Counted from the stretch's first letter, positions 6,809 to 59,158 are shown. The stretch: DNA of 64,000 nt from Micavibrio sp. (GCA_021604545.1 BQJE01000001.1:43444-107443); one strand, 5' to 3'. Numbers and translations: made by a program. Notes: generated by a model not told the origin, from the letters alone.

Positions 6809-8893
6809 CTATGCTGCCGTTGTTTTGGTTACGCCCAATTTCGGGGTTTGTGCCTGATTGGCATCCAGGACGGCTGCAAACTGTACAACAGTTTTGTCTG
6901 GCTGCTCATCGTCGTTTCCATGCGGGGTAGACTCGATACCACCCATTTTTTTATTGTTGCCATGGGCGTCTTGTGCCATCGCAAATTCTATCGGCATATT
7001 ATTACCCTTGCCAATAAGCGCGATGCCGCCACTGATATTGCTTGTATCAACATGCTTGTTGGTTCCCTGTGTCGCATGGGAAGAAGCTAGTTTTAATTCT
7101 GCGGCCGTTGCTTTTGATGTAACGTTTAACGCAAAGTTTTGGTACTCATTGGCTGGTGCGCCGCCGTCGTGAGGCTGTTCAGTTGCGGAACCCCCCATGG
7201 CCAATTCTTGTACCTTAATCTCTTCGCCTTTTCCTTTTATCATGATTTTTGCGACCGTCTGTGTTTTTGCGGTATCAGATATAGACGCAACATTTGTCGG
7301 ATCATAACCTGCCGGTAGAGAAACGTCAGGAATATGGCGCGTTGTTCCCTTGCTGACTTGTGCGGCATGTTTGGTATCCATGCTGCCTTCTATCATTTTG
7401 GCACCAACCAGAAGTGTGCCGATAAAGAGAGCCACATTTAAAATGCCTTGCGTACCCCAGGGCATATTGTTGCTGATCCAGCTGCCGATTGTTTTATAAG
7501 CCAGAATGGCTGCCAGAAGTCCGCCAGCGCCTTTTGCTATGCTTTGGGCTGTCGTTCCTTCCCTGCCGTTCCAGATGCGGGAGAGGTAATTTTTACCTCT
7601 TGTATAAAGCGAGCCGGAGCTATTGGAGAAAATTCCACCCAAGCTTTGGCCAAGGCCGTGGAGTGAGCCACCCTTTCTTAATTCCAGAGGCGCCATGCCG
7701 CCGCCTTTGCCATCATCCCATGCATTTGAAGCGCCTTCACTGTAGTTTTCTAATTTAAGGTCATAGGTTAGTTTCTGCGCTTTTTTAACGGCGTCATTTG
7801 CGCGCGCTGTCTGGAGGGGTGTTTTTCTTGCGTTTTTCAGGGCTTCTTCTTTCTCCCTGACCTCATCCAGAGTTTTTGCATCTGCGTTGTTATTAATGGC
7901 TTCTCTTTTTTCTTCCTCAAGGTCTGCCAATGCTGTTTCGATGTTAGCCAGGTTTGTCTTTATGGTGCCAATGATCTCGCTTGCTTTTTTAAGCTTATTG
8001 TTCACCTGATCGTCGCGCGCTTTTTCGCTTACAGAATGTTCTGTCTGCTCTGCGATAAGAGCATCTTTTGCGGCTTTGATTTTATCTTTCGTTTCCGGTG
8101 TGAAGTGTTGAGTTTTTGCTGTTTCTTCAACCGCTTTCAGAGCCTTAATCATCTCCGTGATTTTACCTTGCCTTAGTTCCTCGTTGGCTTCGATTTTCGT
8201 AAATTTAACCCGCAGTGTATAGGCATCTTCCCTGGCTGTTTTTGCCTTTTTGGTGTCTGGTTTGGGCAGTGCCTTTTTTAGTTCACGAATAACCGTGTTG
8301 ATCTCGCCGATGAAAACCTGCTTATCGCCGAGCCTGACCAAAAGTTTTTTCGCCTCTTCCAGATCCTTAATTTCCTTGTCGATGTCTATCTTGTCTAGTA
8401 TGACCTGGTTCTGGGTGGGGGCTGCAGGTTGGCCGGGGGTGGCGGCTACCCCTGGTGCTGCAGGAACTGTTTTATTTTGTATATTTGCTAGTCTGTCAGC
8501 GACTGTTGCTGCCTGCAACATATCTTCCATCTTGTCGCTGCCATATTGAATAAGTCTCCGGCCCTCTACGGCAGCGACACTATATGCATGTCCCGGACCC
8601 ATCTTTTTTTCAATTTTCAAAAAGAAGTCAGTTAATCTCGCCGGACCAGTGCTCATAAAAGATTTTGTGTATTTCTCCATTAGATCACGATCAATATTGA
8701 TATGTTTGTCAGCCAGGGCGAGGGCGTCATCAATATTTGCGCTGGTGGCACTTTTAAGAGATTCAATGATAATTTTTGTTAGCTGTGCAACATCGTTTTG
8801 GCCAATTGTAAATAGCATCAATGAAAGCGGTTCACCTTCTGCGATGAGCTTGTCTTTAGCGTCTATTTGGCTTTGTGTTAGTGTGTTGTTCAT
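6809..8893 (-). CDS. 694-aa orphan protein with a long coiled-coil region and a bilobed hydrophobic hairpin
   Basis: Residues ~170-400 are K/E/A-rich heptad-like sequence. The hydrophobic hairpin is GAGGLLAAILAYKTIGSWISNNMPWGTQGILNVALFIGTLLVGAKMI. The RBS is AGAGGGA. I recognised no enzymatic motif. Confidence 0.7.
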   Translation of the reverse strand: MNNTLTQSQIDAKDKLIAEGEPLSLMLFTIGQNDVAQLTKIIIESLKSATSANIDDALALADKHINIDRDLMEKYTKSFMSTGPARLTDFFLKIEKKMGPGHAYSVAAVEGRRLIQYGSDKMEDMLQAATVADRLANIQNKTVPAAPGVAATPGQPAAPTQNQVILDKIDIDKEIKDLEEAKKLLVRLGDKQVFIGEINTVIRELKKALPKPDTKKAKTAREDAYTLRVKFTKIEANEELRQGKITEMIKALKAVEETAKTQHFTPETKDKIKAAKDALIAEQTEHSVSEKARDDQVNNKLKKASEIIGTIKTNLANIETALADLEEEKREAINNNADAKTLDEVREKEEALKNARKTPLQTARANDAVKKAQKLTYDLKLENYSEGASNAWDDGKGGGMAPLELRKGGSLHGLGQSLGGIFSNSSGSLYTRGKNYLSRIWNGREGTTAQSIAKGAGGLLAAILAYKTIGSWISNNMPWGTQGILNVALFIGTLLVGAKMIEGSMDTKHAAQVSKGTTRHIPDVSLPAGYDPTNVASISDTAKTQTVAKIMIKGKGEEIKVQELAMGGSATEQPHDGGAPANEYQNFALNVTSKATAAELKLASSHATQGTNKHVDTSNISGGIALIGKGNNMPIEFAMAQDAHGNNKKMGGIESTPHGNDDEQPDKTVVQFAAVLDANQAQTPKLGVTKTTAA

Positions 8894-8919
8894 TTTATTT
8901 CCCTCTATTTTTTTTGGTT

Positions 8920-11900
8920 TTACCGTCCTAGTACGAGTGGCTCCGTTTCTTTAAGGAAGTTGTCCAGCATCATTCGTCTTTCCTGCTGGTTTTTTGGTGT
9001 TTGTATAGCAGGTAAGTTCGTTGCTTGCGCAAATTGTCCTGATGGGTTGTCAGGATTTGTTTCCTCAAGGAACTTATTCAGATAAGCGCGCGTTTTTTCT
9101 TGATCCACCACGACAACGGCTGGGTCCGGTATTTGTGACATTGTTTTGAACTGGCGCCTTGTTTCGCGCAGGCGTTCTTGTGGATTCTTTCCAGCAATGA
9201 TGTCTTTTGCAATTCTCATATCATCCATGATTTCGTCTGGCGGTACTTGCCCAATGATGCTGAAAGCCATCCGCATATCTTCTTTTAATTCAGCAGCGGC
9301 CAATCTCGATTCGGTTTCGCCGCGGTCGCCAAGATAATGTTTGTTAAATTCCATGAGGCTGAGGCCCGGTGCATCGGTGCTGAAATAATCTTCCACTTCT
9401 AAATTTAGTGGTGCGGCTTTTCCTAATTTCTTTTTGACCATTTTTTGTACGGGATCGCTGTTCCATAAATTCCTGCCGGCGGCTGTGTATCCTCTGAGGG
9501 GGCTCAGTCCCAAATCGACAATATCCAGAAGGAGTTCTGTTGTTCTGTTGCCGACGTCAAGATCGGTATTCGTAAATGGAACAACAAGATTGCCCTCTTC
9601 ATTGGTTATCCATGTTTCTTTTTCGGGTGTCATCGTGCCTTCGATGGTGCCTTCAATAGCAGCTAAAGCAGTACCACCAGCGCCCAGAGCTATCGCAGTT
9701 TTCTTGGCGGCTGTGTTTGTAAACAAGGGTTTTGTAACCAAGATGGCCGGGCGGATGGGTAGGGTAGCCCAGTTCCAAAGAAGCTTAGTAACTACTTTAG
9801 CTCGTGCCGCTAACTCCCAACCTCTTTTCTCGTCTTTCCCAAGTTCGGGTAACCATAGAACTCGTGGTGCCGGGTTTTTAGGATCCACAGAAGGAGATGT
9901 ATAACCACCAGATAGATAGGCTTTGGTCTCTGCCCACCAATTGCGGGCCCTTTGTACGACAAACATATCCATAAATGGCACCGCAATTTCACCTTCACCG
10001 GCAAATCGCTTTCCGTGCCAAAGTAAGTGACTCATACGGACAAACAGGTCCAGGACATGTCTTTGAAATTGTGGGAACGGGCTGTGGCCCATCCATGCTT
10101 CTTCAAAGGCTACCCCTCCCAAAAATTCATCAAAATGTGCCATTGCTGTGGCTGCTTCAGGTGTGCCTTGTGTTATCCTGATAGCCTTAACATCGGGGCG
10201 GTCTTTTTCACTCCCCAGCATGTTAGACAGGCCTTGCGGGATTTTATTTTCTTCACCGCGTCCGGTCATCCATTGCAGACGCTGTATGGCTTTGATGTAT
10301 TCCCACTCTCTACCGGCACCGTAAACTGTTCTGGCTTGTCCATCGAGATATTCAGTAACTGATTTCTTTTGACTTATGACCTCTTGCAGCTCATGTGCCA
10401 TTTCAATCAGGATGGCAAATCTCTCGGAGTTATCCCGGTCTGGAAACTCAATTATGTCTGCGATCCTTCTGTTTGAGTTATAATAACCAACATCAAACAT
10501 GCGCATCAGGGCATCTATATCCTCTATTTTATTTTTACGCATCTTCCAATTTCCACCCAAAGTTTTAGGAACAAAGCGTTTCCAGTTATATATGGCTTTG
10601 TCTTGGTCCCTTTGGAAGGCATTGGCTGATTTTTCCTGGTTGGCATTACCTGTGAGTTTTTTAATGTCCCACAGGCTTTTTCTGATTGCCTTTCCAACCG
10701 CAGATTCATCAATGTTTTTTCCCAGAATGTCATCAAATTCTTTGGAGTATTGTGTTCCAAACCCACTGCCTATATCACTTAATTTTTCAGCTGTGGATTT
10801 GATATTAAGGACATATCGATACATGGCATCTGCCTGACGGTGCTCAAGCCGGAAACTGCCTTTCCCCCCATTTTTGGCATTGGTTACATAGGCGATTCTT
10901 TGTTCTAGCGAAAGTGTGAGCCCGGTACCCTTTGCGGCCTGGCTTGCTTCCCAGTCATCAATGATTTTTGTTGCTCTTGCGCCGGCTTCGTCTGGATCTA
11001 TACCTTTTTCTGCTTTTCGTGCCAGCTCTGTGACCTTGGCAAGATCTCTTTCCAGTTCAATTTCATCAACGATGCTGTCCAGACTTTTTGCGAAATCCCC
11101 TAGTTTCGTTTCGTTGTCTAACCTGAACTGGTCGACAAGGTCTGCACACTCCTTTTTAGCTTGCGTAGCATCAATTTCATTTCTTTCCGCTCGTCTTGCA
11201 ACTTTCTCGAGCTGTGCTTCAAGCGTAGAGACGATCTCGTTCATATTGTGTCTGCTATCCAGTATTTTATCATCTATGGCATGTATGAATGCGTGCATGT
11301 ACTTGCCCATGGCCAGATCATTTGGAAGCCAGTCAGAGGGATCTCCAGTTTTCCATGGGGGTAGCATTCTTCGTGGCAAACCCGCCGCCCATACTGCGGT
11401 GTGCATCCAGCTTCTCTCAGGCGCAGCAATAATTTTGTCAGATGTTATCAGGCCGCTCGGTGCGCCCCTATACCAGCTGCGAACTTTGTTTCCAGCTTTT
11501 TTTACGCCGCCTACAACGGAGCCGAGCTTTCCGCCAGTCCATGATACAACTTTCGGTATGACAACAGGGCCGAGGGCACCAAAGGCGCCGCCCATGACGA
11601 CCTGCTGTGCGAAGAGGTCGGTTCTGAATTCCTTTTCCCTGCCGATGGTGACGTCTGTGTCGAGGCGGTGCTTGGCATCGATGGCTGCGAAACTTGTGCC
11701 TTCAACCAAACCCATGGCGGCTCCGTATGTTTTTGATACTGGGCCTGCGGCTGTTTTAGCACTTGATACGGCAGCTCTAATTCCGGATGATTTAATGGCG
11801 CTCAGACCGCCTTTGGCGACGTTCCAGCCAATTTGTAGACCTTTACCCAAAAAGCCGGCGGGAAGCATAAGAATGTTTTCGGGGGCGGCCAGAGTTTCGA

Positions 11901-12441
11901 GTACAAATTCAATATTGCTGGCATCGTATTTATCGTAAACATCTTTTAGATAGCGCAAGGCTTCTTTTTGTTCCGGCGTAGCCTTCTCAGCTTTTCTGTC
12001 AACGCCGATCGAACCACCTATATCATCGCTATTGAACCAGTTCAGTGGATTGATGAGTTCGGTACTCCACTCGGCCAGGCCGGTTTCATAGTCCATCATA
12101 AATTCCATACCGTAGTTTATGACTTCGTCATCGCTCATTGATTGAGGCGGCGGCTTGCCTTTCATCATTTCATAGGTATGGACACTGGCCCTCAGCAATG
12201 ATTGTCTAAGGGCAGCGTTTTCTGGTTTGTCTTCGTAATCTTCGTCCTGGAATTTGTTTTCCCGGTGCAGGACAGTCTGGTCGTATTTCTCTTCGTAGCT
12301 TTCTCCGCCCAGGCCGGTAGCGGCTTGCTGGAATCTTGACACGGCAGTTTCGCGCCCTTGCTCTAATGCAGGGTCGCGTTCTTCCGTCGTCGCTGTCGCG
12401 GACGGTTTGTCTATCGTTATAAATTTGTTAATATCCGCCAT
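8920..12441 (-). CDS. 1173-aa orphan protein with Gly/Ala-rich hydrophobic segments
   Basis: This is a single long ORF. Hydrophobic segments include VVMGGAFGALGPVVIPKVV and AIALGAGGTALAAIEGTI. No recognisable domain or signal peptide. Confidence 0.7.
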   Translation of the reverse strand: MADINKFITIDKPSATATTEERDPALEQGRETAVSRFQQAATGLGGESYEEKYDQTVLHRENKFQDEDYEDKPENAALRQSLLRASVHTYEMMKGKPPPQSMSDDEVINYGMEFMMDYETGLAEWSTELINPLNWFNSDDIGGSIGVDRKAEKATPEQKEALRYLKDVYDKYDASNIEFVLETLAAPENILMLPAGFLGKGLQIGWNVAKGGLSAIKSSGIRAAVSSAKTAAGPVSKTYGAAMGLVEGTSFAAIDAKHRLDTDVTIGREKEFRTDLFAQQVVMGGAFGALGPVVIPKVVSWTGGKLGSVVGGVKKAGNKVRSWYRGAPSGLITSDKIIAAPERSWMHTAVWAAGLPRRMLPPWKTGDPSDWLPNDLAMGKYMHAFIHAIDDKILDSRHNMNEIVSTLEAQLEKVARRAERNEIDATQAKKECADLVDQFRLDNETKLGDFAKSLDSIVDEIELERDLAKVTELARKAEKGIDPDEAGARATKIIDDWEASQAAKGTGLTLSLEQRIAYVTNAKNGGKGSFRLEHRQADAMYRYVLNIKSTAEKLSDIGSGFGTQYSKEFDDILGKNIDESAVGKAIRKSLWDIKKLTGNANQEKSANAFQRDQDKAIYNWKRFVPKTLGGNWKMRKNKIEDIDALMRMFDVGYYNSNRRIADIIEFPDRDNSERFAILIEMAHELQEVISQKKSVTEYLDGQARTVYGAGREWEYIKAIQRLQWMTGRGEENKIPQGLSNMLGSEKDRPDVKAIRITQGTPEAATAMAHFDEFLGGVAFEEAWMGHSPFPQFQRHVLDLFVRMSHLLWHGKRFAGEGEIAVPFMDMFVVQRARNWWAETKAYLSGGYTSPSVDPKNPAPRVLWLPELGKDEKRGWELAARAKVVTKLLWNWATLPIRPAILVTKPLFTNTAAKKTAIALGAGGTALAAIEGTIEGTMTPEKETWITNEEGNLVVPFTNTDLDVGNRTTELLLDIVDLGLSPLRGYTAAGRNLWNSDPVQKMVKKKLGKAAPLNLEVEDYFSTDAPGLSLMEFNKHYLGDRGETESRLAAAELKEDMRMAFSIIGQVPPDEIMDDMRIAKDIIAGKNPQERLRETRRQFKTMSQIPDPAVVVVDQEKTRAYLNKFLEETNPDNPSGQFAQATNLPAIQTPKNQQERRMMLDNFLKETEPLVLGR

Positions 12442-12542
12442 GGATACACACCTTCTTTTCTATTACCTCTTTGCCGTTTGTCCGTATTTTTACGGTTCTA
12501 ATTATTTTATTTTTTATCGTTTTTTATCGTTGTCGTTTTTTA

Positions 12543-13166
12543 TTAATACATTCCTGTTGGTTCAGGTTCTTCTTGTGTAAGTGCCTCGGTGACCTGTCCG
12601 TATTTTTGTTTGATCCAGTTCACGGGCGTTTCCAATTTAATGCCGTTTGTTTGTTTGGGACCTTTCTGGCTTGCCTCATCATTGAAGTAGCTTTTAAAGT
12701 AATCTTTTAGAAAATAGTTCCAAAACAAGCCAACAATGGCTGTAGCAGCTGCACCATAAACGGTACTCTTAGCCGCACCGCCTGTTACCACGCCTGCTAT
12801 TAAAGGGACTGCGAAAGTACTAACTGTGTCCCAAGTTCCGGCTTCTTCAGGCTCTCCTTTGTTATCATCAAAGTGTTTTCCTAGAGCTCTTTCACGGGGC
12901 TCGCCGGAGAATTCTACAGGGTCTGGGGGGGCTGTGGCTCTTTTGTTAGAAGAGTGTCCCCGCGGAGTTATCTCATCCTCAGGTTTGTTTTTTCCTGCAA
13001 TGGTTACCTTGGTACCATCAACGATCATAGAAAAACGTTGACTAAAAGATTTGTCTTTTGCGTTCACAGCTCTTTGAAAGGATTCCATTATGCCGCCGTT
13101 ATAGACTCCGCGATCAGTGAGGTCGGCGAATCCTAGAAAAGTTGCAAGCCATGCTATAGGACCCAT
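12543..13166 (-). CDS. 207-aa orphan protein with a Gly/Ala-zipper hydrophobic hairpin
   Basis: The hairpin is FAVPLIAGVVTGGAAKSTVYGAAATAIVGLFW. A strong RBS (AGAGGGGGG) lies 8 nt upstream of the ATG. Confidence 0.6.
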   Translation of the reverse strand: MGPIAWLATFLGFADLTDRGVYNGGIMESFQRAVNAKDKSFSQRFSMIVDGTKVTIAGKNKPEDEITPRGHSSNKRATAPPDPVEFSGEPRERALGKHFDDNKGEPEEAGTWDTVSTFAVPLIAGVVTGGAAKSTVYGAAATAIVGLFWNYFLKDYFKSYFNDEASQKGPKQTNGIKLETPVNWIKQKYGQVTEALTQEEPEPTGMY

Positions 13167-27463: not shown

Positions 27464-28684
27464 TTAATTTACAGTAGCTTCGACTTTTCCCTCAGGTTCT
27501 TCAAGTTCTTCTTCTTGTGGCTTTGTTTGTGACTCTGAAGGGTTCTGACTTTTTTGCGACACTTCATTCACTTTGTCTGGATGAAATTCTATTAAATTCA
27601 TCGTTTTGTCTATCAAAGTTGATGTTGCTAATGGCTTGGTGCTTATGATTTCCTGTACGACCATATAGTTTTTAGCAAAAAATACACGCAAACGTGCAAA
27701 ATTAGCGTGCAGTGCTTTTGATGGTGGATTAATGTTCATTTCAGTTTCAAGAATCATATGATTTTCTGTTGGAGTCTTTGTAAATTGGAACGTTGAGGAA
27801 TCTCGTTTGTATTTTGAAACATGTTTGTCAAACAAAACTTTTTTGACATTGGCCATAGATAATTCTTGATTGAATTTATAGCCATGCACGCGATAGAAAA
27901 TTTTATGACCCCAGACCGGGTCATAAAATGTCTGACTTATAAGTTCTGAATTTTTAGAGGCCGCCTTAATTCTAGGCTCTTTCATGACGTAAGGAGGTGC
28001 TGGGTGTGGCAAAAAGACAGTGAATAATCCCATGGGTGATGTGTGGGTTCCCCAGTCTCCCCCCAACTTTCCTTCAGTGTAGCTAAGGCCGTCTCTAATC
28101 AAAAGGGTCTTAAAAAACTTCTTTGCCTGGTAGCCATACAAAATATGTTCGTCACCTGTGAGGGATTGTTCCACTCTTGTGGCGTCCGTATATAATATTC
28201 TTACTCTTGTGCTTCGCGCGCCCATATCAGGGTCTTCGTAGGAGATCTGAAGTTCGGCTCCTGGTTTGCCATTAAAATACTTCAACTCTTTGTTCTTTAT
28301 GACTGCATTCATGTCGATGTAACGATTCGTATAGTTTTGAATTTCATAATTGAGAAAGGTCTCAATCTGGTCATACGTGAGAGCAGGACCTATGGTTTGG
28401 TCAATCTTAATGAGATAACTTTTGAAGGTGTCTTTAAATCTGCGTTGATCCACAACGGATATTGCTGTGCTGCTGTTGGCAATGCGCTCATCATCAATGC
28501 GGAAGCTGCTTGTCTTCGTGTCAAATTTGTTGGCTGCCCGAACATCAAATATCCCGGTATCTGATTTGTAAAGAATCCATTTGATGTCGTCGGCATTCGC
28601 AATAGAAACGCCCATTGAAAGCCCTGCAATTATTACAAGCGCCAGTATTTTTCTTTTTAACAGAGTGTTGTTTTTGATCATCAT
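27464..28684 (-). CDS. Secreted hypothetical protein (AT-rich orphan)
   Basis: I chose the start at MMIKNNTLLKRKILALVIIAGLSMGVSIANA, a signal peptide with an AGGGG RBS. A spot count gives ~38% GC. The C-terminal tail is acidic and low-complexity. Confidence 0.55.
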   Translation of the reverse strand: MMIKNNTLLKRKILALVIIAGLSMGVSIANADDIKWILYKSDTGIFDVRAANKFDTKTSSFRIDDERIANSSTAISVVDQRRFKDTFKSYLIKIDQTIGPALTYDQIETFLNYEIQNYTNRYIDMNAVIKNKELKYFNGKPGAELQISYEDPDMGARSTRVRILYTDATRVEQSLTGDEHILYGYQAKKFFKTLLIRDGLSYTEGKLGGDWGTHTSPMGLFTVFLPHPAPPYVMKEPRIKAASKNSELISQTFYDPVWGHKIFYRVHGYKFNQELSMANVKKVLFDKHVSKYKRDSSTFQFTKTPTENHMILETEMNINPPSKALHANFARLRVFFAKNYMVVQEIISTKPLATSTLIDKTMNLIEFHPDKVNEVSQKSQNPSESQTKPQEEELEEPEGKVEATVN

Positions 28685-28732
28685 CTCGGGACCCCTTTTC
28701 ACCTCTATGATAACAGAATTAGACCCTTAAAT

Positions 28733-29289: not shown

Positions 29290-29973
29290 ATGAAAAAAGA
29301 AATAGCTGAATTTATCGGCACATTTACGCTCGTGCTTTTCGGGTGCGGGGCGGCGGTGATTGCCGGCGATGCCATTGGCATTTTAGGCATATCGCTGGCC
29401 TTTGGTCTGGCATTGATAGCCATGGCCTATGGCATCGGGCCTGTATCGGGATGCCACATTAATCCGGCGGTGAGCTTTGGCGCTTATATAGCTGGGCATA
29501 TGACCTTGCGGGAATTTATCCGTTATGCATTTGCGCAGTGTCTGGGCGCGATTGTCGGGGCGTTTATCCTGATGACCATCGCAAAAGGACAGCTGTCTGG
29601 TTATGACGTTGGTGCCTCGGGCCTTGGCCAAAACGGTTGGGGCGCGGATTATATGGGTGGCTACGGTATGCAGGCTGCGTTTATTTTTGAATTTCTAGCC
29701 ACCGCGATTTTTGTGCTGGTGATTTTGGGTTCAACCCAGAAAGATGGCGCTGGACATGTGGCTGGTTTGGCGATTGGTTTAACGCTTGCCGTCATTCATA
29801 TTGTCGGGATTAATATTACCGGTGTGTCGGTTAATCCGGCACGCAGTCTTGGGCCGGCCATTTTTGCCGGCGGTGATGCGATGGGGCAGCTCTGGCTGTT
29901 CGTGATTGCGCCGATGGCCGGGGCGTTGTTCGCGGCGGTTCTGGCCAAGATGGGCTGGCTTGAGGCTGAATAA
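29290..29973 (+). CDS. aqpZ: Aquaporin Z
   Basis: It has six transmembrane helices and two NPA boxes (HINPAVS, VNPARS). The N-terminus reads AEFIGTFTLVLFGCG. Confidence 0.93.
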   Translation: MKKEIAEFIGTFTLVLFGCGAAVIAGDAIGILGISLAFGLALIAMAYGIGPVSGCHINPAVSFGAYIAGHMTLREFIRYAFAQCLGAIVGAFILMTIAKGQLSGYDVGASGLGQNGWGADYMGGYGMQAAFIFEFLATAIFVLVILGSTQKDGAGHVAGLAIGLTLAVIHIVGINITGVSVNPARSLGPAIFAGGDAMGQLWLFVIAPMAGALFAAVLAKMGWLEAE

Positions 29974-30001: not shown

Positions 30002-30029
30002 AAGCGGCTCTTGAGGGGCCGCTTTTTTG
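30002..30029 (+). terminator. Rho-independent terminator of aqpZ
   Basis: The stem agcggc/gccgct is followed by tttttt. The listed TTG start at 30027 lies inside it. Confidence 0.7.
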
Positions 30030-30107
30030 CGTTTTGACTATGTTTCAAGGTATAATATTATGAATAACAATAAAGTGAAAAAACAAAGACTTAACGGTGG
30101 TGTGGAT
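30021..30107 (+). promoter_or_regulatory. Promoter/5'UTR module, copy A (paralogous to 31386-31469)
   Basis: Copy A reads gcttttttgcgttttgac...ggtataatattatg...aaagacttaacggtggtgtggatATG. It contains TATAAT at 30051-30056. Confidence 0.55.
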
Positions 30108-31385
30108 ATGGCAAATTATAAAGATTACGTCACATTTGATTCTAGTGTTACCAATTTACCGCCAGAAGAGCACGGCAAGATAGAGCAATCTCTAGGCGAG
30201 ATTGTAAGCACCCCGGAAGGCGAAGAACTTCTCAAAAACGCAGCGAGCAAAACTCCAAATGGCAAAGTCATATTACGTCATGATAAAAACGGTGATACAG
30301 AAACTAATTATGAAGAAGGTTCAGTTACGATAGGAAAGCAAAGTTATGGGGGCGAATACTGGAGTCCCAAGAATGGCAAAATAGATGAAGGGAGTTATCC
30401 GGATGACCCAAGTGTTGATGAAACGAGAACTGCTAGTTTTAAACCCCTGAGTTTACAAAGAGCTTTGGTGCATGAATTAAAGCACACTGAAAAAGAGCAT
30501 CATCCAAACGATGGACGTCTTGAATTTGCTAGCGAAGCAGAAACCATAGATGAGACAAATGATTATATGGCCAAATACTACGGCGAGCCACCTAGAGATA
30601 TATATGGTCATGGGAAAGCGAGAATTGCAGAAGGCGCAGAAACTCGTGATTGGGATTACGGTCAAGAAGTGGAGCCGGAGCAAACTCCTCTCTTATATAG
30701 TGAGAATTTTAAACCAGAAGGATATAGTGATGCGCCTTCTGCTCCTAGTCAGGATTCTAACGAAAACGGACTTGATGAAATCAGTAGTGGTGTTGATCCC
30801 TCTGTTTTGGCGATGGTTGATGGTGGTGAGAATCAGGTGCCCTCTACAGAAAATCCTTCTGTTTCCCAAACTTTCAATGCAGTTGCTCCGGCGGTAGCCG
30901 GTGGTTTTGAGAATAGCGCCGCGCAACCTGCTGTTGCGGTAATACCCACTGATCAGACTGTGCGGGATAATGCCGATATCCAGATGGCTGAGGCAAGGCC
31001 GGAGCTTTTTAAAACGGCCTACAAAATTGAGGCGGGCGATCCTGTCACCCCAGAGGAGCAGGGTGATGTTGCGGAATTTGTGCACGGAGTTCACGCCAAT
31101 ACGCACGGTATTCCTGAGAACCCGCAGGTTGTCGCTGCTGTTCGTCGTGATGTGGAAACTGCCGGTGGTGATATAAGTTTTAACCAGCTTGTCGATCATA
31201 CGATTCATCAAAGTAATGCCGATGGCATTCAATCCAGCGCGGAAGTGGCAGAAAACTCGCAGATTGTTCAGGCGAAGGTAGATGCGGTTAATAATGCACC
31301 GGGTCAGAATCAATCGGGGCCGCAACAGGCTGTCGGGGAGCTGGCCATGGCCGGGGCTTCTCCTGACACAATGAAAATGGGCTAG
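30108..31385 (+). CDS. Orphan protein with an HExxHxxxxxH zinc-metalloprotease-like motif and a shared C-terminal module
   Basis: I chose the start at MANYKDY by homology of the upstream module with the next gene. The zinc motif is VHELKHTEKEHH. The C-terminal ARPELFKTAYKIEAGDPVTP...MKMG* parallels the neighbour. Confidence 0.6.
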   Translation: MANYKDYVTFDSSVTNLPPEEHGKIEQSLGEIVSTPEGEELLKNAASKTPNGKVILRHDKNGDTETNYEEGSVTIGKQSYGGEYWSPKNGKIDEGSYPDDPSVDETRTASFKPLSLQRALVHELKHTEKEHHPNDGRLEFASEAETIDETNDYMAKYYGEPPRDIYGHGKARIAEGAETRDWDYGQEVEPEQTPLLYSENFKPEGYSDAPSAPSQDSNENGLDEISSGVDPSVLAMVDGGENQVPSTENPSVSQTFNAVAPAVAGGFENSAAQPAVAVIPTDQTVRDNADIQMAEARPELFKTAYKIEAGDPVTPEEQGDVAEFVHGVHANTHGIPENPQVVAAVRRDVETAGGDISFNQLVDHTIHQSNADGIQSSAEVAENSQIVQAKVDAVNNAPGQNQSGPQQAVGELAMAGASPDTMKMG

Positions 31386-31469
31386 GCTTTTTTGTGTTTT
31401 TACACCGTTTTGTAGTACAATATTATGTATATAAAAATAGAAAAAATAAAGATTTAACGGTGGTGTGGT
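31386..31469 (+). promoter_or_regulatory. Promoter/5'UTR module, copy B
   Basis: Copy B reads gcttttttgtgtttttac...gtacaatattatg...aaagatttaacggtggtgtggtATG. It is alignable to 30021-30110 over its whole length. Confidence 0.55.
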
Positions 31470-33221
31470 ATGGGTAATGTTTCCGACAAGTATAAAGATC
31501 AGCCGGCTATTACTATCACGACTGATCCCGTTGATTTGGAATTTGGTGCTGTCGATCGCGCCATATCCTACCGCCATATCCTTGATACTGGCAAGATACC
31601 GCAAAATATAGAAGGCAGCCAATTTGATCAGTCTCGGGGCACAGATACATGGGATCCTCATGCTGATGATGCCTTCAACCGGGCTTTGAAAACGATAGAA
31701 GAAAAAGTATTGCAGGAGATTGAAAGCTCGCCGGAGATGCAGGGGCTTTTATCTAAAGAAACATGGGGCAAAGAGGATCGTGTTTCATGGGAGAGTTTTG
31801 TAGCGGAAAGCGTTACCAAGCATACGCAATCTGTGCCTGGCTTGGATGAATACAGAGAGTTTAATGGGCAGAAAACAGTTCATTTGAACGATTTGTCGAA
31901 AGATATAGAATATAATTCAGACAAAAACCTTCATGGTCATGGCTTTGAGTTTAACTGCCGGATCATGACGTTGACAAAAGGTATTGTTTTGCAGCGCATA
32001 GAGGACCATCAGGATCCGGATGGAAGTTATCTTTTGCCCAGGCAATCATCAGGCCCAGGTGATTATAAGGCAGCTACCGATTATCGTTATATGGAAGGAG
32101 ATGTTGCTTTTGGACCTCCCAGCCGTGAAAGCCAATCAGGTCACGGTTATATTATGTCACCTGAAACGGGGAGTATTATTGAATCTACAGGTGATAAGGA
32201 TGTATATCAAAAAAATTACAGTCTCAATGGAGGTGGTTTTGAGACGGCTTTAAAGGGGATACCAATTATAACCGAAAGTCTTGTGCCAGATGAGTACTAT
32301 GTATATAGCAGCGGTGACACAATTGTATTGGACCCGGAGTATGTCGCCGCCCAGATGGAGGGTGCTCTTGCCTTTGCTGAGAGTACTTCAGGAAAGATGC
32401 TTGTCTCTCTCGAAACGAACGGTGTTAGAGATATCGCGCAGACGCGAGGGCATTGGGAAAGCGCATTTAAAAGACTAGGCGAATTAGATAACCATCCGGA
32501 CATAGCAGCAGCAGTTCAGGAATCTTTTTACCAAAATTTTATTGTCCCTTTGGAAAAGGCAGATCTAAAAAACGCGGATATGTCGGATAAAGGCGATTTT
32601 AAGCAAAAAACCCTGGAGTGGGCGCAGGAGCAAATGCACAAGCTTGAGGAAATTATTGAGCCGCAATCTGACAAAGAGATGGCTAAGAGCAATCAAACCA
32701 AAATCGCCCACGAAATCAACCCGGAAGAGATGGCAATGATCTTGCCTGGAGGGAATGACGTGGCGGCGCAACCAGATGCCATGGTGCTCACTCATAAGGG
32801 CGTGATGGACGCGGTTGATATCAATATTAATGAAAGGCCGGAATTGGTGGAAACAGTTTATCACTGGCAGACAGATGATCCATCAATTATCCCCCTGCAA
32901 GAAAAGATGGCCGTGATGGGGTTTGTGCAGGAAACTTATGAGCAGACTTATACAGCCGAAGCCGGTCCTCTGCCAATGGAAAATATGCAGGCTGGCTTAC
33001 AGACCATGGAGAACACAAATTTTACCGATGCCCAGAATGTTATGATTGCGGAACTCAATGTTGCGAGTGGCGTTGAAAATTCGCCGGAGTTGGTAGCGCA
33101 GCTTCAGGATTTCCGAGAAAAAGCCGATGCCATACAGCAAGCTGAGAATATTCTAAGGACCGGTGGGGCTGAGACGCATGAAATGGTGCTGACAAGTTCG
33201 GACGGCATAAAAATCGGTTAG
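31470..33221 (+). CDS. 583-aa orphan protein sharing the C-terminal module with the preceding gene
   Basis: The C-terminal ERPELVETVYHWQTDDPSIIP...IKIG* matches the neighbour. I recognised no catalytic motif. Its stop overlaps the convergent yejF stop by 4 nt. Confidence 0.6.
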   Translation: MGNVSDKYKDQPAITITTDPVDLEFGAVDRAISYRHILDTGKIPQNIEGSQFDQSRGTDTWDPHADDAFNRALKTIEEKVLQEIESSPEMQGLLSKETWGKEDRVSWESFVAESVTKHTQSVPGLDEYREFNGQKTVHLNDLSKDIEYNSDKNLHGHGFEFNCRIMTLTKGIVLQRIEDHQDPDGSYLLPRQSSGPGDYKAATDYRYMEGDVAFGPPSRESQSGHGYIMSPETGSIIESTGDKDVYQKNYSLNGGGFETALKGIPIITESLVPDEYYVYSSGDTIVLDPEYVAAQMEGALAFAESTSGKMLVSLETNGVRDIAQTRGHWESAFKRLGELDNHPDIAAAVQESFYQNFIVPLEKADLKNADMSDKGDFKQKTLEWAQEQMHKLEEIIEPQSDKEMAKSNQTKIAHEINPEEMAMILPGGNDVAAQPDAMVLTHKGVMDAVDININERPELVETVYHWQTDDPSIIPLQEKMAVMGFVQETYEQTYTAEAGPLPMENMQAGLQTMENTNFTDAQNVMIAELNVASGVENSPELVAQLQDFREKADAIQQAENILRTGGAETHEMVLTSSDGIKIG

Positions 33222-34837
33222 GCTTTTTTCCGCGCTTTCAAATTCAACGCCGCATCCATCAGCGTTTTTGTATATTCCTGTTTTGGATTGTTAAAAATTT
33301 CATCAGCCGGGCCGGATTCAACAACCTTGCCGTCTTTCATCACAATCAAATCATGGGCCATGGCGCGGACGACGCGTAGATCGTGGCTGATGAACATATA
33401 GGCGAGGTCATGCTTTTCCTGGAGCTCGCGCAGCAGATCAACAATTTCCGCCTGAACTGATACATCAAGCGCTGAGGTCGGTTCATCCAGCACAACAAAC
33501 TTTGGATGCAGCACCATGGCGCGGGCGATAGAAATGCGCTGGCGCTGCCCGCCGGAAAATTCATGCGGATAGCGGTGGCGGGTGTCCGGGTCCATGTGCA
33601 CATCGTTTAGCGCCTGCACGACCAGATCATTGCGGTCGTTGTCATTAAGATCGCTGCGATGGAGTTTTAATCCCTCGCCGATGATTTGATTAACGCTCAT
33701 GCGTGGGGAGAGGGAACCGTACGGGTCCTGAAACACAATCTGCATTTGTTCACGTAAGGGACGTAGGTCTTTGCGTTTTAGGTTCGAGATGTCTTTGCCA
33801 TTAAACTCTATTCGTCCTTTGGAACCGAGCAGGCGGAGCAGGGCCAATCCGAGCGTGGTTTTTCCAGAGCCGGATTCGCCGACAACGCCGATGGTATGAC
33901 CCGCTTTGGCGGTGACATTGATATCATCGACGGCCTTGACCCAGTCGGTGGTTTTACCAAAAAAGTTTTTGGCTTTCGGGAAGTGGACTTTGATATTCGC
34001 GCCTTCGATGACTTTTTGTGAGCCGTCTTTGGGTGGTTTGGCGCGACCGGCAGGCTGTGCGGCCAGAAGCATTTTCGTGTATTCATGTTTTGGTTTATCG
34101 AACAGGATTTTGGTTGGTTCCTGTTCAACCAGCTTTCCATGTTTCATGACACAAACATCATCAGCCATTTTTTTCACGATAGAGAGATCATGGGTGATGA
34201 GCAGCAGCGACATATCAAGGCGGTCTTTGAGGTCCTGCAGCAGCTCCAATATCTGCGCCTGGATGGTGACGTCGAGGGCGGTGGTTGGCTCGTCAGCGAT
34301 CAGAAGCTCGGGGTTGTTGGCGAGCGCCATAGCGATCATGACACGCTGGCGTTGCCCGCCAGACAGCTCGTGTGGATAGGCGTTCAGGCGTTCTTTCATG
34401 CGCGGCAGGCCGACAAGCTCGAGCAGCTCTAACACGCGTGTATGGGCTTCGTCTTTGTTCATACCCTGATGAATGCGCAGGACTTCGGCGATTTGTTTTT
34501 CGATGTTGTGCAGCGGGTTGAGGGCACTTTGCGGTTCCTGGAATATCATCCCGATTTGCTGGCCGCGGATTTTACGCATGAAATTGTCGGGTTTGCCAAC
34601 GAGTTCTTCGCCTTCGAAGGTGATGGAGGATTTTTCGGTGTGACTGGCCAGTGGGTAGGGTAGGAGCTGCATGACTGATAAAGCCGTCACCGATTTGCCT
34701 GATCCGCTTTCACCAACCAGCGCCATCGTCTCACCTTTTTTGATATCAAAGCTGACATCATCGACAGCGAGAAACACGCCGGAGGGCGTTTTGAAATCGA
34801 CGGAGAGATTTTGAATTTTTAGAAGTGCGTCAGTCAT
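33218..34837 (-). CDS. yejF: Peptide/microcin C-type ABC transporter, fused double ATP-binding protein YejF
   Basis: It has two Walker A sites (GESGSGKS x2), two LSGGQRQR signatures and Dpp/Opp-type C-terminal extensions. Its start overlaps the argH stop by 4 nt. Confidence 0.88.
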   Translation of the reverse strand: MTDALLKIQNLSVDFKTPSGVFLAVDDVSFDIKKGETMALVGESGSGKSVTALSVMQLLPYPLASHTEKSSITFEGEELVGKPDNFMRKIRGQQIGMIFQEPQSALNPLHNIEKQIAEVLRIHQGMNKDEAHTRVLELLELVGLPRMKERLNAYPHELSGGQRQRVMIAMALANNPELLIADEPTTALDVTIQAQILELLQDLKDRLDMSLLLITHDLSIVKKMADDVCVMKHGKLVEQEPTKILFDKPKHEYTKMLLAAQPAGRAKPPKDGSQKVIEGANIKVHFPKAKNFFGKTTDWVKAVDDINVTAKAGHTIGVVGESGSGKTTLGLALLRLLGSKGRIEFNGKDISNLKRKDLRPLREQMQIVFQDPYGSLSPRMSVNQIIGEGLKLHRSDLNDNDRNDLVVQALNDVHMDPDTRHRYPHEFSGGQRQRISIARAMVLHPKFVVLDEPTSALDVSVQAEIVDLLRELQEKHDLAYMFISHDLRVVRAMAHDLIVMKDGKVVESGPADEIFNNPKQEYTKTLMDAALNLKARKKA

Positions 34838-56863: not shown

Positions 56864-57577
56864 CTAAGCGTTCACAGCTTCCTGCTGTTTTTTCTTTTCT
56901 TCTTCCGGGTCGCGCAGGACGTAGCCTCTGCCCCAGACGGTTTCGATATAATTGGCGCCTTCTGTTACATCGGCCAGTTTCTTGCGCAGCTTGCAGATAA
57001 ACACGTCAATGATTTTTACTTCCGGTTCATCCATGCCACCATAAAGATGGTTCAGGAACATTTCCTTGGTCAGCGTTGTGCCCTTGCGTAAGCTCAGCAA
57101 TTCAATAATGCCGTATTCCTTGCCGGTTAGATGCAGCGGTCTGCCGTCGACTTCGACGGTGCGGGAATCCAGGTTCACGCAGACGCGGCCGGTTTCAATC
57201 ACGCTTTGTGAATGACCTTGGCTTCTGCGGACAATCGCTTGAATTCGGGCGACTAATTCGCGTTTATCGAACGGCTTGGTCAGGTAATCGTCAGCGCCAT
57301 AGCCAAGACCTTTGAGCTTGTTATCAAGCTCGGTCAGACCGGACAGAATAAGAATAGGGGTTTCAACCTTGGCATCGCGCAGATGTTTCAAAACATCGTA
57401 GCCATCCATATCGGGCAGCATCAAATCGAGGATGATAATGTCGTAATCGTAGATTTTGCCGATCTCCATGCCGTCTTCACCCAGATCGGTGGTATCGACA
57501 ATATAACCTTCTGATTTGAGCATCAGCTCGATGGATTTGGCGGTGGAGCTGTCATCTTCGACTAAAAGAACGCGCAT
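56864..57577 (-). CDS. ctrA: Cell-cycle / motility master response regulator CtrA (OmpR family)
   Basis: [25 protein letters not shown]...[17 protein letters not shown]...TKPF is followed by the winged helix [13 protein letters not shown]. It is a near-canonical CtrA sequence. Confidence 0.92.
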
Positions 57578-57620
57578 GGCTTAATCCCCTTGATAGTGAC
57601 GATTACACGAAAAGGCTTTG

Positions 57621-57674
57621 TTAACCTTGGTTAACATCTATATTAACAAATATTAACAAAGTTAACAAATTTAA
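57621..57674. promoter_or_regulatory. Phased array of five TTAAC half-sites plus one TTAA half-site in the ctrA-fliI divergent promoter region
   Basis: TTAAC occurs at 57621, 57631, 57643, 57653 and 57662, and TTAA at 57671. Start-to-start spacings are 10, 12, 10, 9 and 9 nt. Another TTAAC lies at ~57740. Confidence 0.55.
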
Positions 57675-57769
57675 TTTCCAGGCCTATCAATTCCTCAAAT
57701 TGAGGTGGAGGCCGGACCACGGACAGTGTACTGTAAATATAGAGTTTTAACGCTTTATGGGTAATTTTC

Positions 57770-59158
57770 ATGGACAGAATGGCCGACCAGGTAGAAGCCG
57801 CAATTTCGACTCTTCCCGATAAGGAAATATACGGGCAGGTGACGAAAGTGCTCGGCCTTTTGGTTGAAATAGCCGGTTTTACAAGCAATCTCTCTATTGG
57901 CTCGATGGTGCATTTGCGCCCCGATGGCAAGTCGTATATCCCTTGCGAAGTGGTCGGATTTAAAGACGGCCATGCGCTTTTGATGCCTTTTGGTACGCTG
58001 GAAGGGGTTGGGCTCGGCTGTCGGGCTTATATTCAGGAGGGTGATCTGGTGATTACGCCGGATGATCGCTGGCTCGGTCGCGTGATTAACGGTATGGCAG
58101 AGCCGATTGACGGGCTTGGGCAATTGGGGAAGGGCGGGCATCCTGTGCCGCTGCGTAACAAACCGCCGTTGCCGCATTCACGGCAACGCATTGGTGAGCA
58201 GCTGGATCTTGGTGTGCGCTCTGTGAATTCATTTTTGGCAACATGCAGAGGTCAGCGCATGGGGATTTTTTCCGGCTCTGGTGTTGGGAAATCGGTGTTG
58301 TTGTCGATGATGGCGCGTTATACCACCGCCGATGTTTCGGTGATCGGGCTGGTTGGTGAGCGTGGCCGCGAGGTGCAGGAATTTCTTGAAGATGATCTTG
58401 GCGAAGACGGGTTGGCGCGCTCGGTTGTGATTGTTGCGACGGGTGATGAGTCTGCCTTGATGCGCAGGCAGGCGGCTTATACGACGCTGGCTGTGGCCGA
58501 GTATTTCAGAGATCAGGGTAAACAAGTGTTGTGTCTTATTGATTCCGTTACAAGATTTGCGATGGCGCAGCGCGAGATTGGTTTGTCTGCCGGTGAGCCG
58601 CCAACATCGAAAGGATATCCGCCAACAACATTTGGCGAGTTGTCGCGGCTTCTTGAACGCGCCGGGCCGGGCGCGCCGGGGCAGGGCTCTATTACGGGAT
58701 TGTTTTCCGTGCTGGTCGAGGGGGATGATCACAACGAACCGATTTCCGATTCCGTGCGCGGGATTGTCGACGGGCATATTGTTATGCGCCGTGAAATTGC
58801 CGATCGCGGGCGCTACCCGGCGATTGATGTGTTGAAATCGATCTCGCGTTCGATGCCGGGATGTTTTAATGACTGGCAAAATGCGGTGATAAGACGTGCG
58901 AAGCAGATTGTAACAACGTACGAAGATATGGCTGAATTAATACGGCTCGGCGCGTATCGAAAAGGCAGCGATGCCGCGGTGGATGAGGCGATTGCCATCT
59001 ACCCGCAAATTGAGGAGTTCCTGCGCCAGCACAAGGATGAATCAACAAGCATCGATAAAAGCTTCCAACTTCTGGCCGGGATTTTGGGCGTGGCGCAGGA
59101 GGAGGATTTTGGTTTGGTGGATGATGGTATGGGTGATAAGGGAATGAGTGATGGCTGA
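57770..59158 (+). CDS. fliI: Flagellum-specific ATP synthase FliI
   Basis: It has Walker A GSGVGKS and Walker B LLIDSVTR. The F1/T3SS-ATPase core is RYPAIDVLKSISR. Confidence 0.95.
   Translation: MDRMADQVEAAISTLPDKEIYGQVTKVLGLLVEIAGFTSNLSIGSMVHLRPDGKSYIPCEVVGFKDGHALLMPFGTLEGVGLGCRAYIQEGDLVITPDDRWLGRVINGMAEPIDGLGQLGKGGHPVPLRNKPPLPHSRQRIGEQLDLGVRSVNSFLATCRGQRMGIFSGSGVGKSVLLSMMARYTTADVSVIGLVGERGREVQEFLEDDLGEDGLARSVVIVATGDESALMRRQAAYTTLAVAEYFRDQGKQVLCLIDSVTRFAMAQREIGLSAGEPPTSKGYPPTTFGELSRLLERAGPGAPGQGSITGLFSVLVEGDDHNEPISDSVRGIVDGHIVMRREIADRGRYPAIDVLKSISRSMPGCFNDWQNAVIRRAKQIVTTYEDMAELIRLGAYRKGSDAAVDEAIAIYPQIEEFLRQHKDESTSIDKSFQLLAGILGVAQEEDFGLVDDGMGDKGMSDG

Follow-up and report, generated by a model that had tools for sequence, protein, structure and literature searches.

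A lineage-specific pair of modular, possibly effector-like paralogues between aqpZ and yejF in a Micavibrio-like alphaproteobacterium

Two paralogous genes between aqpZ and yejF

The DNA analyzed here, referred to below as the window, is a stretch of 64,000 nucleotides (GCA_021604545.1 BQJE01000001.1:43444-107443) from the metagenome-assembled genome (MAG) 'Micavibrio sp. DHS20C02', and the subject of this report is a pair of open reading frames (ORFs) that lie on the plus strand of the window between aqpZ (29290-29973, plus strand) and the convergent yejF (33218-34837, minus strand). Gene 1 (30108-31385, plus strand) encodes a protein of 425 amino acids with an isoelectric point (pI) of 4.4 and no Cys residues, and gene 2 (31470-33221, plus strand) encodes a protein of 583 amino acids with a pI of 4.5 and one Cys; the gene 2 product is identical to DHS20C02_00850. 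As already noticed in an earlier reading of this DNA made without database searches (hereafter, the sequence-only reading), neither protein has a signal peptide: a hydrophobic N-terminus is absent in both, and the maximum Kyte-Doolittle mean over 19 residues stays below 0.9. The two genes show the features of a tandem duplication, namely adjacent units on the same strand in which a 5' expression module, a C-terminal module and the 3' end are homologous and follow in the same order, and they differ in their N-terminal domains. The pair is modular, with an orphan C-terminal domain, and plausibly effector-like; the reading that we favor, with a probability of roughly 0.45, is that of a lineage-specific 3.2-kb insertion carrying two paralogous, co-regulated, Sec-independent exported hydrolytic effectors.

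The C-terminal regions of about 170 amino acids are homologous (28% identity over 170 amino acids, BLASTP E=3e-8), and the identity of the respective codons is highest at the second position (0.57), lower at the first (0.47) and lowest at the third (0.36), which is the pattern of old coding homology. No similarity is detectable between the N-terminal domains, and the resemblance of the first ~25 residues of both proteins (M[AG]N..YKD) is not significant as homology. The division into unrelated N-terminal parts and a common C-terminal block that the sequence-only reading proposed is therefore upheld, and the C-terminal similarity is statistically significant. In AlphaFold models from two-sequence alignments, the C-terminal modules form matching six-helix units with a predicted local distance difference test (pLDDT) score of 65-85, followed by disordered tails of 20-30 amino acids. 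In gene 1, the module (30951-31295, plus strand; amino acids 282-396, six predicted helices, pLDDT 69-83) is followed by a disordered, acidic, Q/N/G/A-rich tail that ends in KMG (31296-31382, plus strand); in gene 2, the module (32793-33158, plus strand; amino acids 442-563, six predicted helices) is followed by a disordered, acidic tail that ends in KIG (33159-33218, plus strand). The last 50 amino acids of the two proteins have pI values of 4.2 and 4.4, respectively. The C-terminal module contains no hydrophobic hairpin and has no structural match in the PDB according to Foldseek. Upstream of the module, gene 1 contains a linker (30630-30950, plus strand; approximately amino acids 175-281) that is rich in P, S, E, N, A and V and is predicted to be disordered (pLDDT below 50), and gene 2 contains a central helical region (32334-32699, plus strand; amino acids 289-410) that has no counterpart in gene 1.

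The nucleotide composition of the pair is atypical. The GC content of the pair region is 45.2% versus 48.8% in the whole window, such that the AT-richness stated in the sequence-only reading is modest overall and clear only at third codon positions, where the GC content (GC3) of genes 1 and 2 is 0.38 and 0.45, respectively, compared to 0.55-0.60 in the neighboring genes. Gene 1 is a compositional mosaic, with a GC content of 41.5% in the N-terminal domain (30108-30630) and 53% in the C-terminal module through the end of the gene (30951-31385); in gene 2, the contrast is weaker (43% vs 48%). This mosaic suggests that AT-richer N-terminal domains have been grafted onto a resident C-terminal module.

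The duplicated expression module and the shared 3' ends

Each gene is preceded by a copy of the same 5' module (30021-30107 and 31386-31469, both on the plus strand), with 68 of the 84 aligned positions matching (81%), a level that was reached by none of 2000 shuffles. A core of 21 nucleotides, AAAGAYTTAACGGTGGTGTGG, is located directly before each ATG and occurs in the window only at these two places (0 expected). A consensus scan predicts sigma-70-like promoters, with 10 matches to the 12 consensus positions, at equivalent locations in both modules. Copy 1 consists of a run of T, the -35 hexamer TTGACT (30034-30039), a spacer of 16 nucleotides, the -10 hexamer TATTAT (30056-30061), a leader of about 40 nucleotides, A-rich and unstructured, and the ribosome-binding site GGTGGTG (30096-30102); copy 2 contains the -35 hexamer TTTACA (31399-31404), again a 16-nucleotide spacer, the -10 hexamer TATTAT (31421-31426) and GGTGGTG (31459-31465). 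In both copies, the ribosome-binding site lies 5 nucleotides upstream of the ATG. The presence of an RNA element in the leader was considered and rejected, given that no Rfam match near the threshold was found for the leaders and that both fold no better than shuffled sequences.

The module also places the start of gene 1 at 30108, the position preferred in the sequence-only reading over a TTG at 30027, because the -35 hexamer is located downstream of this TTG; another candidate ATG, at 30060, chosen by one gene caller (database entry P0001), shares nucleotides with the -10 hexamer; the reading frame is not maintained across the aligned modules, which differ by indels of 2 and 1 nucleotides; and the gene 2 counterpart of ATG 30060 reaches a TAA after 10 codons. 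Since the 5' modules are 81% identical versus 36% identity at the saturated third codon positions of the homologous C-terminal regions, the expression signal is either constrained or recently homogenized. Additional copies of the module, for which a genome-wide search had been suggested in the sequence-only reading, were detected neither in the window and the related loci nor in the GTDB representative genomes (a collection that does not include the source genome), JGI metagenomes and viral contigs.

At the opposite end of the units, both genes terminate with AARATSGGYTAG followed by GCTTTTTT, and the proteins accordingly end in K(M/I)G. The combined sequence TAGGCTTTTTT occurs in the window only at 31383 and 33219. 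The TAG of gene 2 overlaps the yejF stop codon on the opposite strand (GGTTAGGC read as GCCTAA). Identity amounts to 81-86% at both ends of the units, the interiors being saturated; the 5' modules and the last ~20 nucleotides of each unit are far better preserved than the coding interior, which, as judged from two copies only, could reflect either constraint or recent homogenization. The alignable upstream regions, the common 3' ends and the overlap of the convergent stop codons had all been pointed out in the sequence-only reading and are borne out by these comparisons.

A separate observation concerns the pattern AARATSGGYT, which on the plus strand of the window is found only at the 3' ends of aqpZ (29947-29958; AAGATGGGCTGG, K-M-G-W), gene 1 (31374-31385; AAAATGGGCTAG, K-M-G-stop) and gene 2 (33210-33221; AAAATCGGTTAG, K-I-G-stop), with one further occurrence on the minus strand; this distribution might be due to chance (rough p ~0.03). 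The repeat unit could once have included the end of aqpZ.

The empty site in OFTM68 and the yejF flank in other relatives

Relatives for the comparison of synteny were identified by a YejF scan of one genome per species. The close relatives are OFTM68 (94% identity in YejF) and OFTM66 (92%), and several more distant Micavibrio-like genomes were recovered as well. A literature search for DHS20C02, DRR328264 and OFTM68 returned nothing. The gene order argH-yejF-aqpZ-rpsU-orphan-pepP is the same in the window and in OFTM68 (locus L003), where aqpZ and yejF are separated by only 36 bp, that is, the site is empty. In OFTM68, the two convergent genes share one bidirectional terminator, AAAAAGGCG...CGCCTTTTTT, the T-run of which encodes the final Lys-Lys-Ala of YejF.

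In the window, the intrinsic terminator of aqpZ (30004-30028, plus strand) consists of GCGGC-loop-GCCGC and a T-run that contains the left copy of the 8-nucleotide repeat GCTTTTTT (30021-30028), the left bound of the insertion. The middle copy directly follows the stop codon of gene 1 (TAG-GCTTTTTT, 31383-31393, plus strand), and the right copy follows the stop codon of gene 2 (TAG-GCTTTTTT, 33219-33229), where the minus strand encodes the last residues of YejF, KKA, and the stop. Because GC(C)TTTTTT is present once in OFTM68 and three times in the window, at 30021 in the aqpZ terminator, at 31386 between the genes and at 33222 at the yejF end, the 3.2-kb segment was either inserted at the repeat or, conversely, precisely deleted in the relative. 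The two units are joined through the same microhomology, a mark of unequal recombination.

Other relatives differ in what they carry downstream of yejF, which makes this a variable spot. In L007 (9605-11923), it is occupied by a 157-amino-acid orphan and a 607-amino-acid ORF that, by inspection, resembles gamma-glutamyltranspeptidase, and in L004 (9620-10050), rpsU is located directly downstream of yejF and aqpZ is missing. These arrangements mark the 3' flank of yejF as a hotspot of gene gain and gene loss in this clade. One of the loci with Micavibrio-like argH-yejF-rpsU-orphan-pepP synteny (L006, JBQDYD010000002.1; YejF 70%) carries the label 'MAG: Alcanivorax sp.' and is probably mis-binned or mislabelled.

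The species represented by the window and by OFTM68 differ at about 30% of third codon positions whereas the C-terminal modules of the pair are saturated, which indicates that the paralogues are much older than the split of the species. The pair would thus either have arrived already diverged or have been lost from the relatives.

The N-terminal domains

The N-terminal domain of gene 1 (30165-30617, plus strand; approximately amino acids 20-170) is a putative zincin. It contains HELKH (H122-E-L-K-H126, nucleotides 30471-30485), the only HExxH motif in the protein, and additional His residues at 131 and 132. The only Pfam signal, which is below the family cut-off, is that of PF14891, Peptidase_M91, and covers amino acids 24-131 including HELKH. 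The gene 1 motifs are collinear with those of NleD and comprise IExxLxxIxSTxxGxxLL (amino acids 25-42), HELxH, (N/D)G(E)RL, EAxT and GxPxRxxY. The last of these (amino acids 159-166, nucleotides 30582-30605) reads G159-E-P-P-R163-D-I-Y166 versus G199-M-P-R-R203-T-S-Y206 in NleD, and its RxxY, downstream of HExxH, is the only one within amino acids 1-200 of gene 1. The HExxH motif, a Glu as the third ligand and an RxxY that stabilizes the active site are hallmarks common to M91 and the botulinum light chains (M27) (PMC6367388). The candidate third ligands in gene 1 are E143 and E145 in SEAETID, which aligns with EEARTV of NleD; a helix is predicted at amino acids 145-158 (pLDDT below 50). As in the M91 family of zinc proteases (type III secretion effectors of the NleD/HopH1 type), the gene 1 domain is small, about 150 amino acids, with the same order of motifs; it differs from NleD in that the spacers between the motifs are ~10 amino acids shorter and in that it is followed by a long C-terminal extension that NleD lacks. 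A BLASTP comparison of gene 1 with the NleD clade gave nothing. On the strength of the motifs, the N-terminal domain of gene 1 is probably a Glu-liganded zincin of the M27/M91 clan; its similarity to the M91 family proper is sub-threshold.

The sequence-only reading had described the same motif as metzincin-like, that is, as HExxHxxxxxH with a third His at +10 and without the Gly. The residues are indeed present, and the spacing of H122, H126 and H132 would be compatible with a metzincin-type protease in which H132 is the third zinc ligand. However, Lys (K129) replaces the invariant Gly of HExxHxxGxxH, no metzincin family is found for gene 1 in Pfam even at E<=5, and the downstream EAxT and GxPxRxxY better match the Glu-liganded M27/M91 pattern. 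We consider the metzincin interpretation to be highly improbable and reject it.

The N-terminal domain of gene 2 (31557-32189, plus strand; amino acids 30-240) is homologous to the N-terminal region of P0003 (34-41% identity, E=6e-34), a 645-amino-acid protein from an unrelated Logan assembly. P0003 starts with a typical Sec signal peptide and ends in ...LQASLKWTF, in which alternating hydrophobic residues are, by inspection, those of a beta-barrel-type terminus; it contains no Pfam family. Because P0003 combines a signal peptide with a barrel-type end, the gene 2-type domain is expected to function outside the cytoplasm in the organism that encodes P0003. Compared to this autotransporter-like protein, gene 2 has neither the signal peptide nor the barrel-type end and instead contains the orphan helical module. 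The only Cys of gene 2, C162 (nucleotides 31953-31955), and its H225 (nucleotides 32142-32144) are conserved between gene 2 and P0003 and are located in the two best conserved blocks, FxCxxMxxTxGIVLQR and HxxIxSxxTGxIIEST; in the low-confidence model of gene 2, C162 maps to a helix and H225 to a strand. These features are compatible with a Cys-His hydrolase. The gene 2 domain has no Pfam or PDB match and no relative other than P0003 in metagenomes and plasmids. A resemblance of amino acids 4-46 of gene 2 (31479-31607) to the E4B U-box (DPVxLxxGxxxDRxxIxRHxL; E=0.15) is treated as a chance match.

Search for additional family members

When 1.84 billion representative proteins were scanned by HMMER without filters, using a profile of the C-terminal module, only the entries of the pair, P0001 and P0002, and one artefact were detected. 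The latter, P0004, is a 2209-amino-acid ankyrin-repeat protein (E=1.9e-10) in which a single stretch of 29 amino acids (SPELCEILLKHxAKIDAV) was matched eight times; it was rejected as a relative given that repeats inflate the significance of profile matches. The module had no match among the window ORFs, PDB sequences, Pfam and viral contigs. The sequence-only reading had tentatively proposed a family of proteins with a common C-terminal recognition domain; across these collections, the family consists of the two proteins from which it was proposed, and the existence of a wider one is rejected. A lack of further members was among the outcomes that the sequence-only reading had itself named as counting against its proposal. 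In a word-indexed search of 5.8 billion clusters, gene 1 retrieved only itself, and gene 2 itself and P0003. The pair has no relatives in the PDB, Pfam, plasmids and JGI metagenomes, and no matches in the PADLOC library of defense systems and the PHROGs library of phage proteins.

Proposed function

On the reading that we favor, a Micavibrio-like alphaproteobacterium would have acquired the 3.2-kb segment in the terminator that its convergent aqpZ and yejF genes have in common, and with it two old paralogues, each with its own expression module, a distinct N-terminal catalytic domain, and the common acidic C-terminal module and tail. The N-terminal domain of gene 1 would be an HExxH zinc protease with a Glu ligand, a distant relation of the NleD/M91 (botulinum light-chain-like) enzymes, and that of gene 2 a second, unrelated putative hydrolase; the promoter and leader common to both genes would ensure their joint expression. 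Leaving the cytoplasm without a Sec signal, with the C-terminal module and tail serving as an export or targeting adaptor, the proteins would be hydrolytic effectors directed, outside the cell, at prey or competitors. As for the route, a type I-like C-terminal signal would be the most plausible in this group because Micavibrio aeruginosavorus possesses type I and type II secretion and lacks types III and IV; in this bacterium, secretion is up-regulated during prey attachment (PMC3189940). Indirect support for secreted hydrolases comes from the M91-like signal and RxxY motif of gene 1 and from the relative of the gene 2 N-terminal domain that carries a Sec signal. The pattern of secreted effectors or toxins proposed in the sequence-only reading is, in effect, retained in part: the variable N-terminal domains, the shared C-terminal module and the shared expression signal stand, whereas neither a family nor a linked secretion system was found.

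Similar to type I substrates, the two proteins are acidic and Cys-poor, lack an N-terminal signal and have a disordered C-terminal end, and metalloproteases are common cargo of type I systems. In contrast to most, albeit not all, of these substrates, the pair lacks GGxGxD repeats, and it also lacks the adjacent genes for an ATP-binding cassette (ABC) transporter, a membrane fusion protein (MFP) and TolC, an association that is frequent but not obligatory; furthermore, the type I signal resides in the last 50-60 residues whereas the conserved part of the pair is a folded module of ~115 amino acids. The architecture is also reminiscent of the X-Tfe effectors of the bactericidal type IV secretion system (T4SS) of the Xanthomonadales type, in which diverse N-terminal hydrolytic domains are combined with a conserved XVIPCD of ~120 amino acids and an unstructured tail (PMC8740702): the pair likewise consists of variable N-terminal domains, a C-terminal module and an unstructured tail, and has no Sec signal. 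However, there is no sequence match to XVIPCD among Pfam families and PDB sequences even at E<=10, and the C-terminal module is predicted to be all-helical (pLDDT 65-85) as opposed to XVIPCD's alpha-alpha-beta-beta-beta fold determined by nuclear magnetic resonance (PMC8740702); moreover, X-Tfe is a family compared to the two proteins here, no T4SS is seen in the window, and the taxon is different. The Bep proteins of Bartonella, with variable N-terminal domains and a shared helical C-terminal translocation domain (BID), provide an alphaproteobacterial precedent; however, the BID tail is positively charged, in contrast to the tails described here (pI ~4.2-4.4), Pfam gives no BID match, and VirB/VirD4 are not seen. 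A bolder possibility, which we regard as rather doubtful, is that the C-terminal module with its tail is a new export or translocation domain analogous to XVIPCD and BID and unrelated to either in sequence and fold, by means of which a predator would deliver interchangeable M91-like zincin and Cys-His 'warheads' to its prey, with the promoter and leader coupling both genes to prey contact.

Within the favored reading, the duplication, the insertion site, the domain architecture and the lack of relatives are observed, and catalysis, export, co-regulation and the target are inferred. Several results weigh against this reading. Against M91, the complete gene 1 protein scores 17.1 bits (E=0.0075) and its amino acids 1-201 score 19.1 bits (E=0.0018), below the Pfam cut-off of 25. 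The comparison by hhalign with an alignment of 11 NleD-clade sequences yields a probability of 9%, the narrowness of this alignment (effective number of sequences, Neff, 2.1) making it a weak test; a hidden Markov model of the NleD clade, for which only close relatives of NleD were collected, gives 3.4 bits, a value reached by 2 of 2000 shuffles; and global alignment with NleD gives z=1.1. The models of the N-terminal domains of both genes have pLDDT below 50, and Foldseek finds nothing in the PDB below E=0.8. The Cys-His hydrolase idea for gene 2 is based on two sequences, and the C-terminal module, having no relative anywhere searched, cannot be assigned to any known signal domain. As for the export machinery, no secretion system, in particular, no type I or type IV genes among the Pfam-annotated ORFs and no ABC/MFP/TolC genes, is encoded within the 64 kb, and RTX (repeats-in-toxin) GGxGxD repeats are absent from both proteins. 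Finally, the organism is labelled only as 'Micavibrio sp.'.

Alternative explanations

The main rival, which we consider somewhat unlikely, is that the genes are ordinary tandem duplicates with an intracellular role and that nothing is exported. The C-terminal module would then be the best preserved ancestral part, for example, an oligomerization or regulatory domain, the N-termini would have diverged beyond recognition or been replaced, and the 5' similarity would result from duplication and local gene conversion. The microhomology GCTTTTTT, present at all three junctions (left, middle and right), is a classic trace of unequal recombination, and the presence of just two copies anywhere searched, the absence of secretion genes nearby, the sub-threshold M91 signal and the possibility that the first residues (M[AG]N..YKD) are still homologous, even if not significantly so, all fit this explanation. 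It accounts less well for the homology of the gene 2 N-terminal domain with the extracytoplasmic domain of P0003, for the combination of dissimilar N-terminal domains, similar C-terminal modules and a GC mosaic, which points to domain replacement rather than drift, and for the acidic, Cys-poor composition and disordered tails that are typical of Sec-independent substrates. A different mechanism of spread, in which the units are recombination cassettes whose functional part is formed by the conserved ends, namely the 5' module and AARATSGGYTAG-GCTTTTTT, acting as homology arms or attachment sequences for swapping or stacking effector bodies at a terminator hotspot, appears improbable. The contrast between the 81-86% identical ends and the saturated interiors, the insertion exactly within the T-run of a terminator, where the relatives differ in content, and the three copies of the 8-nucleotide repeat would all be expected of such cassettes; yet the 64 kb contain no integrase, transposase or terminal inverted repeat, no further 5' module turned up in any collection searched, the conservation on the 5' side falls on ordinary promoter and ribosome-binding elements, and GCTTTTTT is a common sequence that occurs 15 times on the plus strand of the window.

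There is also little to recommend the proposition that the pair encodes effectors delivered into eukaryotic hosts through type III or type IV secretion, with an NleD-like gene 1, a U-box-like N-terminus of gene 2 and a C-terminal module that, like XVIPCD or BID, is recognized by a coupling protein. The M91 family comprises type III effectors, and the parallel with the X-Tfe/XVIPCD architecture (PMC8740702) and the resemblance of gene 2 to the E4B U-box could be cited in its favor. Nevertheless, the U-box match is not significant, neither XVIPCD nor BID is matched in Pfam or the PDB, the C-terminal module is predicted to be all-alpha rather than alpha-alpha-beta-beta-beta, and the tails are acidic instead of basic. 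Just one type III-like gene is present in the window; it encodes a FliI-like ATPase in a flagellated, chemotactic organism, and the type species has neither type III nor type IV secretion (PMC3189940).

Other features of the window

The rest of the 64 kb consists of housekeeping genes, including rpsU, pepP, mipZ, che genes, arg genes, yejABE and the gene for the FliI-like ATPase. Near the pair, on the minus strand, lies a gene (27464-28702; GC3 0.41) for a 412-amino-acid protein with a signal peptide and no Pfam family. Its identity to the syntenic OFTM68 orthologue is 54%, compared to 88-99% for the neighboring genes, and it is a fast-evolving exported protein. Another lineage-specific accessory block may be represented by three consecutive minus-strand ORFs at 6809-13166 (694, 1173 and 207 amino acids; GC3 0.45-0.46), which have no Pfam family and contain hydrophobic stretches rich in Gly and Ala. 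At 56864-59158, a gene for an OmpR-family response regulator adjoins that of an ATPase with a T3SS_ATPase_C domain, the sole type III-like component in the window, which, given the che genes at 15-21 kb, is presumably the flagellar FliI.

Implications

The molecular basis of prey breaching and digestion by epibiotic predators such as Micavibrio is essentially unknown (PMC12428579), and both effector candidates and export signals are lacking for these bacteria. The weight of the present case is limited by its origin from one uncultured genome, by the availability of two copies and by sub-threshold homology. The locus provides a natural example of gene gain at a terminator hotspot, of an expression signal whose conservation far exceeds that of the coding sequence under its control, and of domain swapping between modes of export, namely a Sec signal with a barrel versus a C-terminal module. 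If the proteins are exported, the C-terminal module would be a defined, transferable unit that could be tested as a secretion tag, and the pair would represent two candidate effector enzymes, one of which would link the NleD/botulinum-type zincin clan to bacterial predation.

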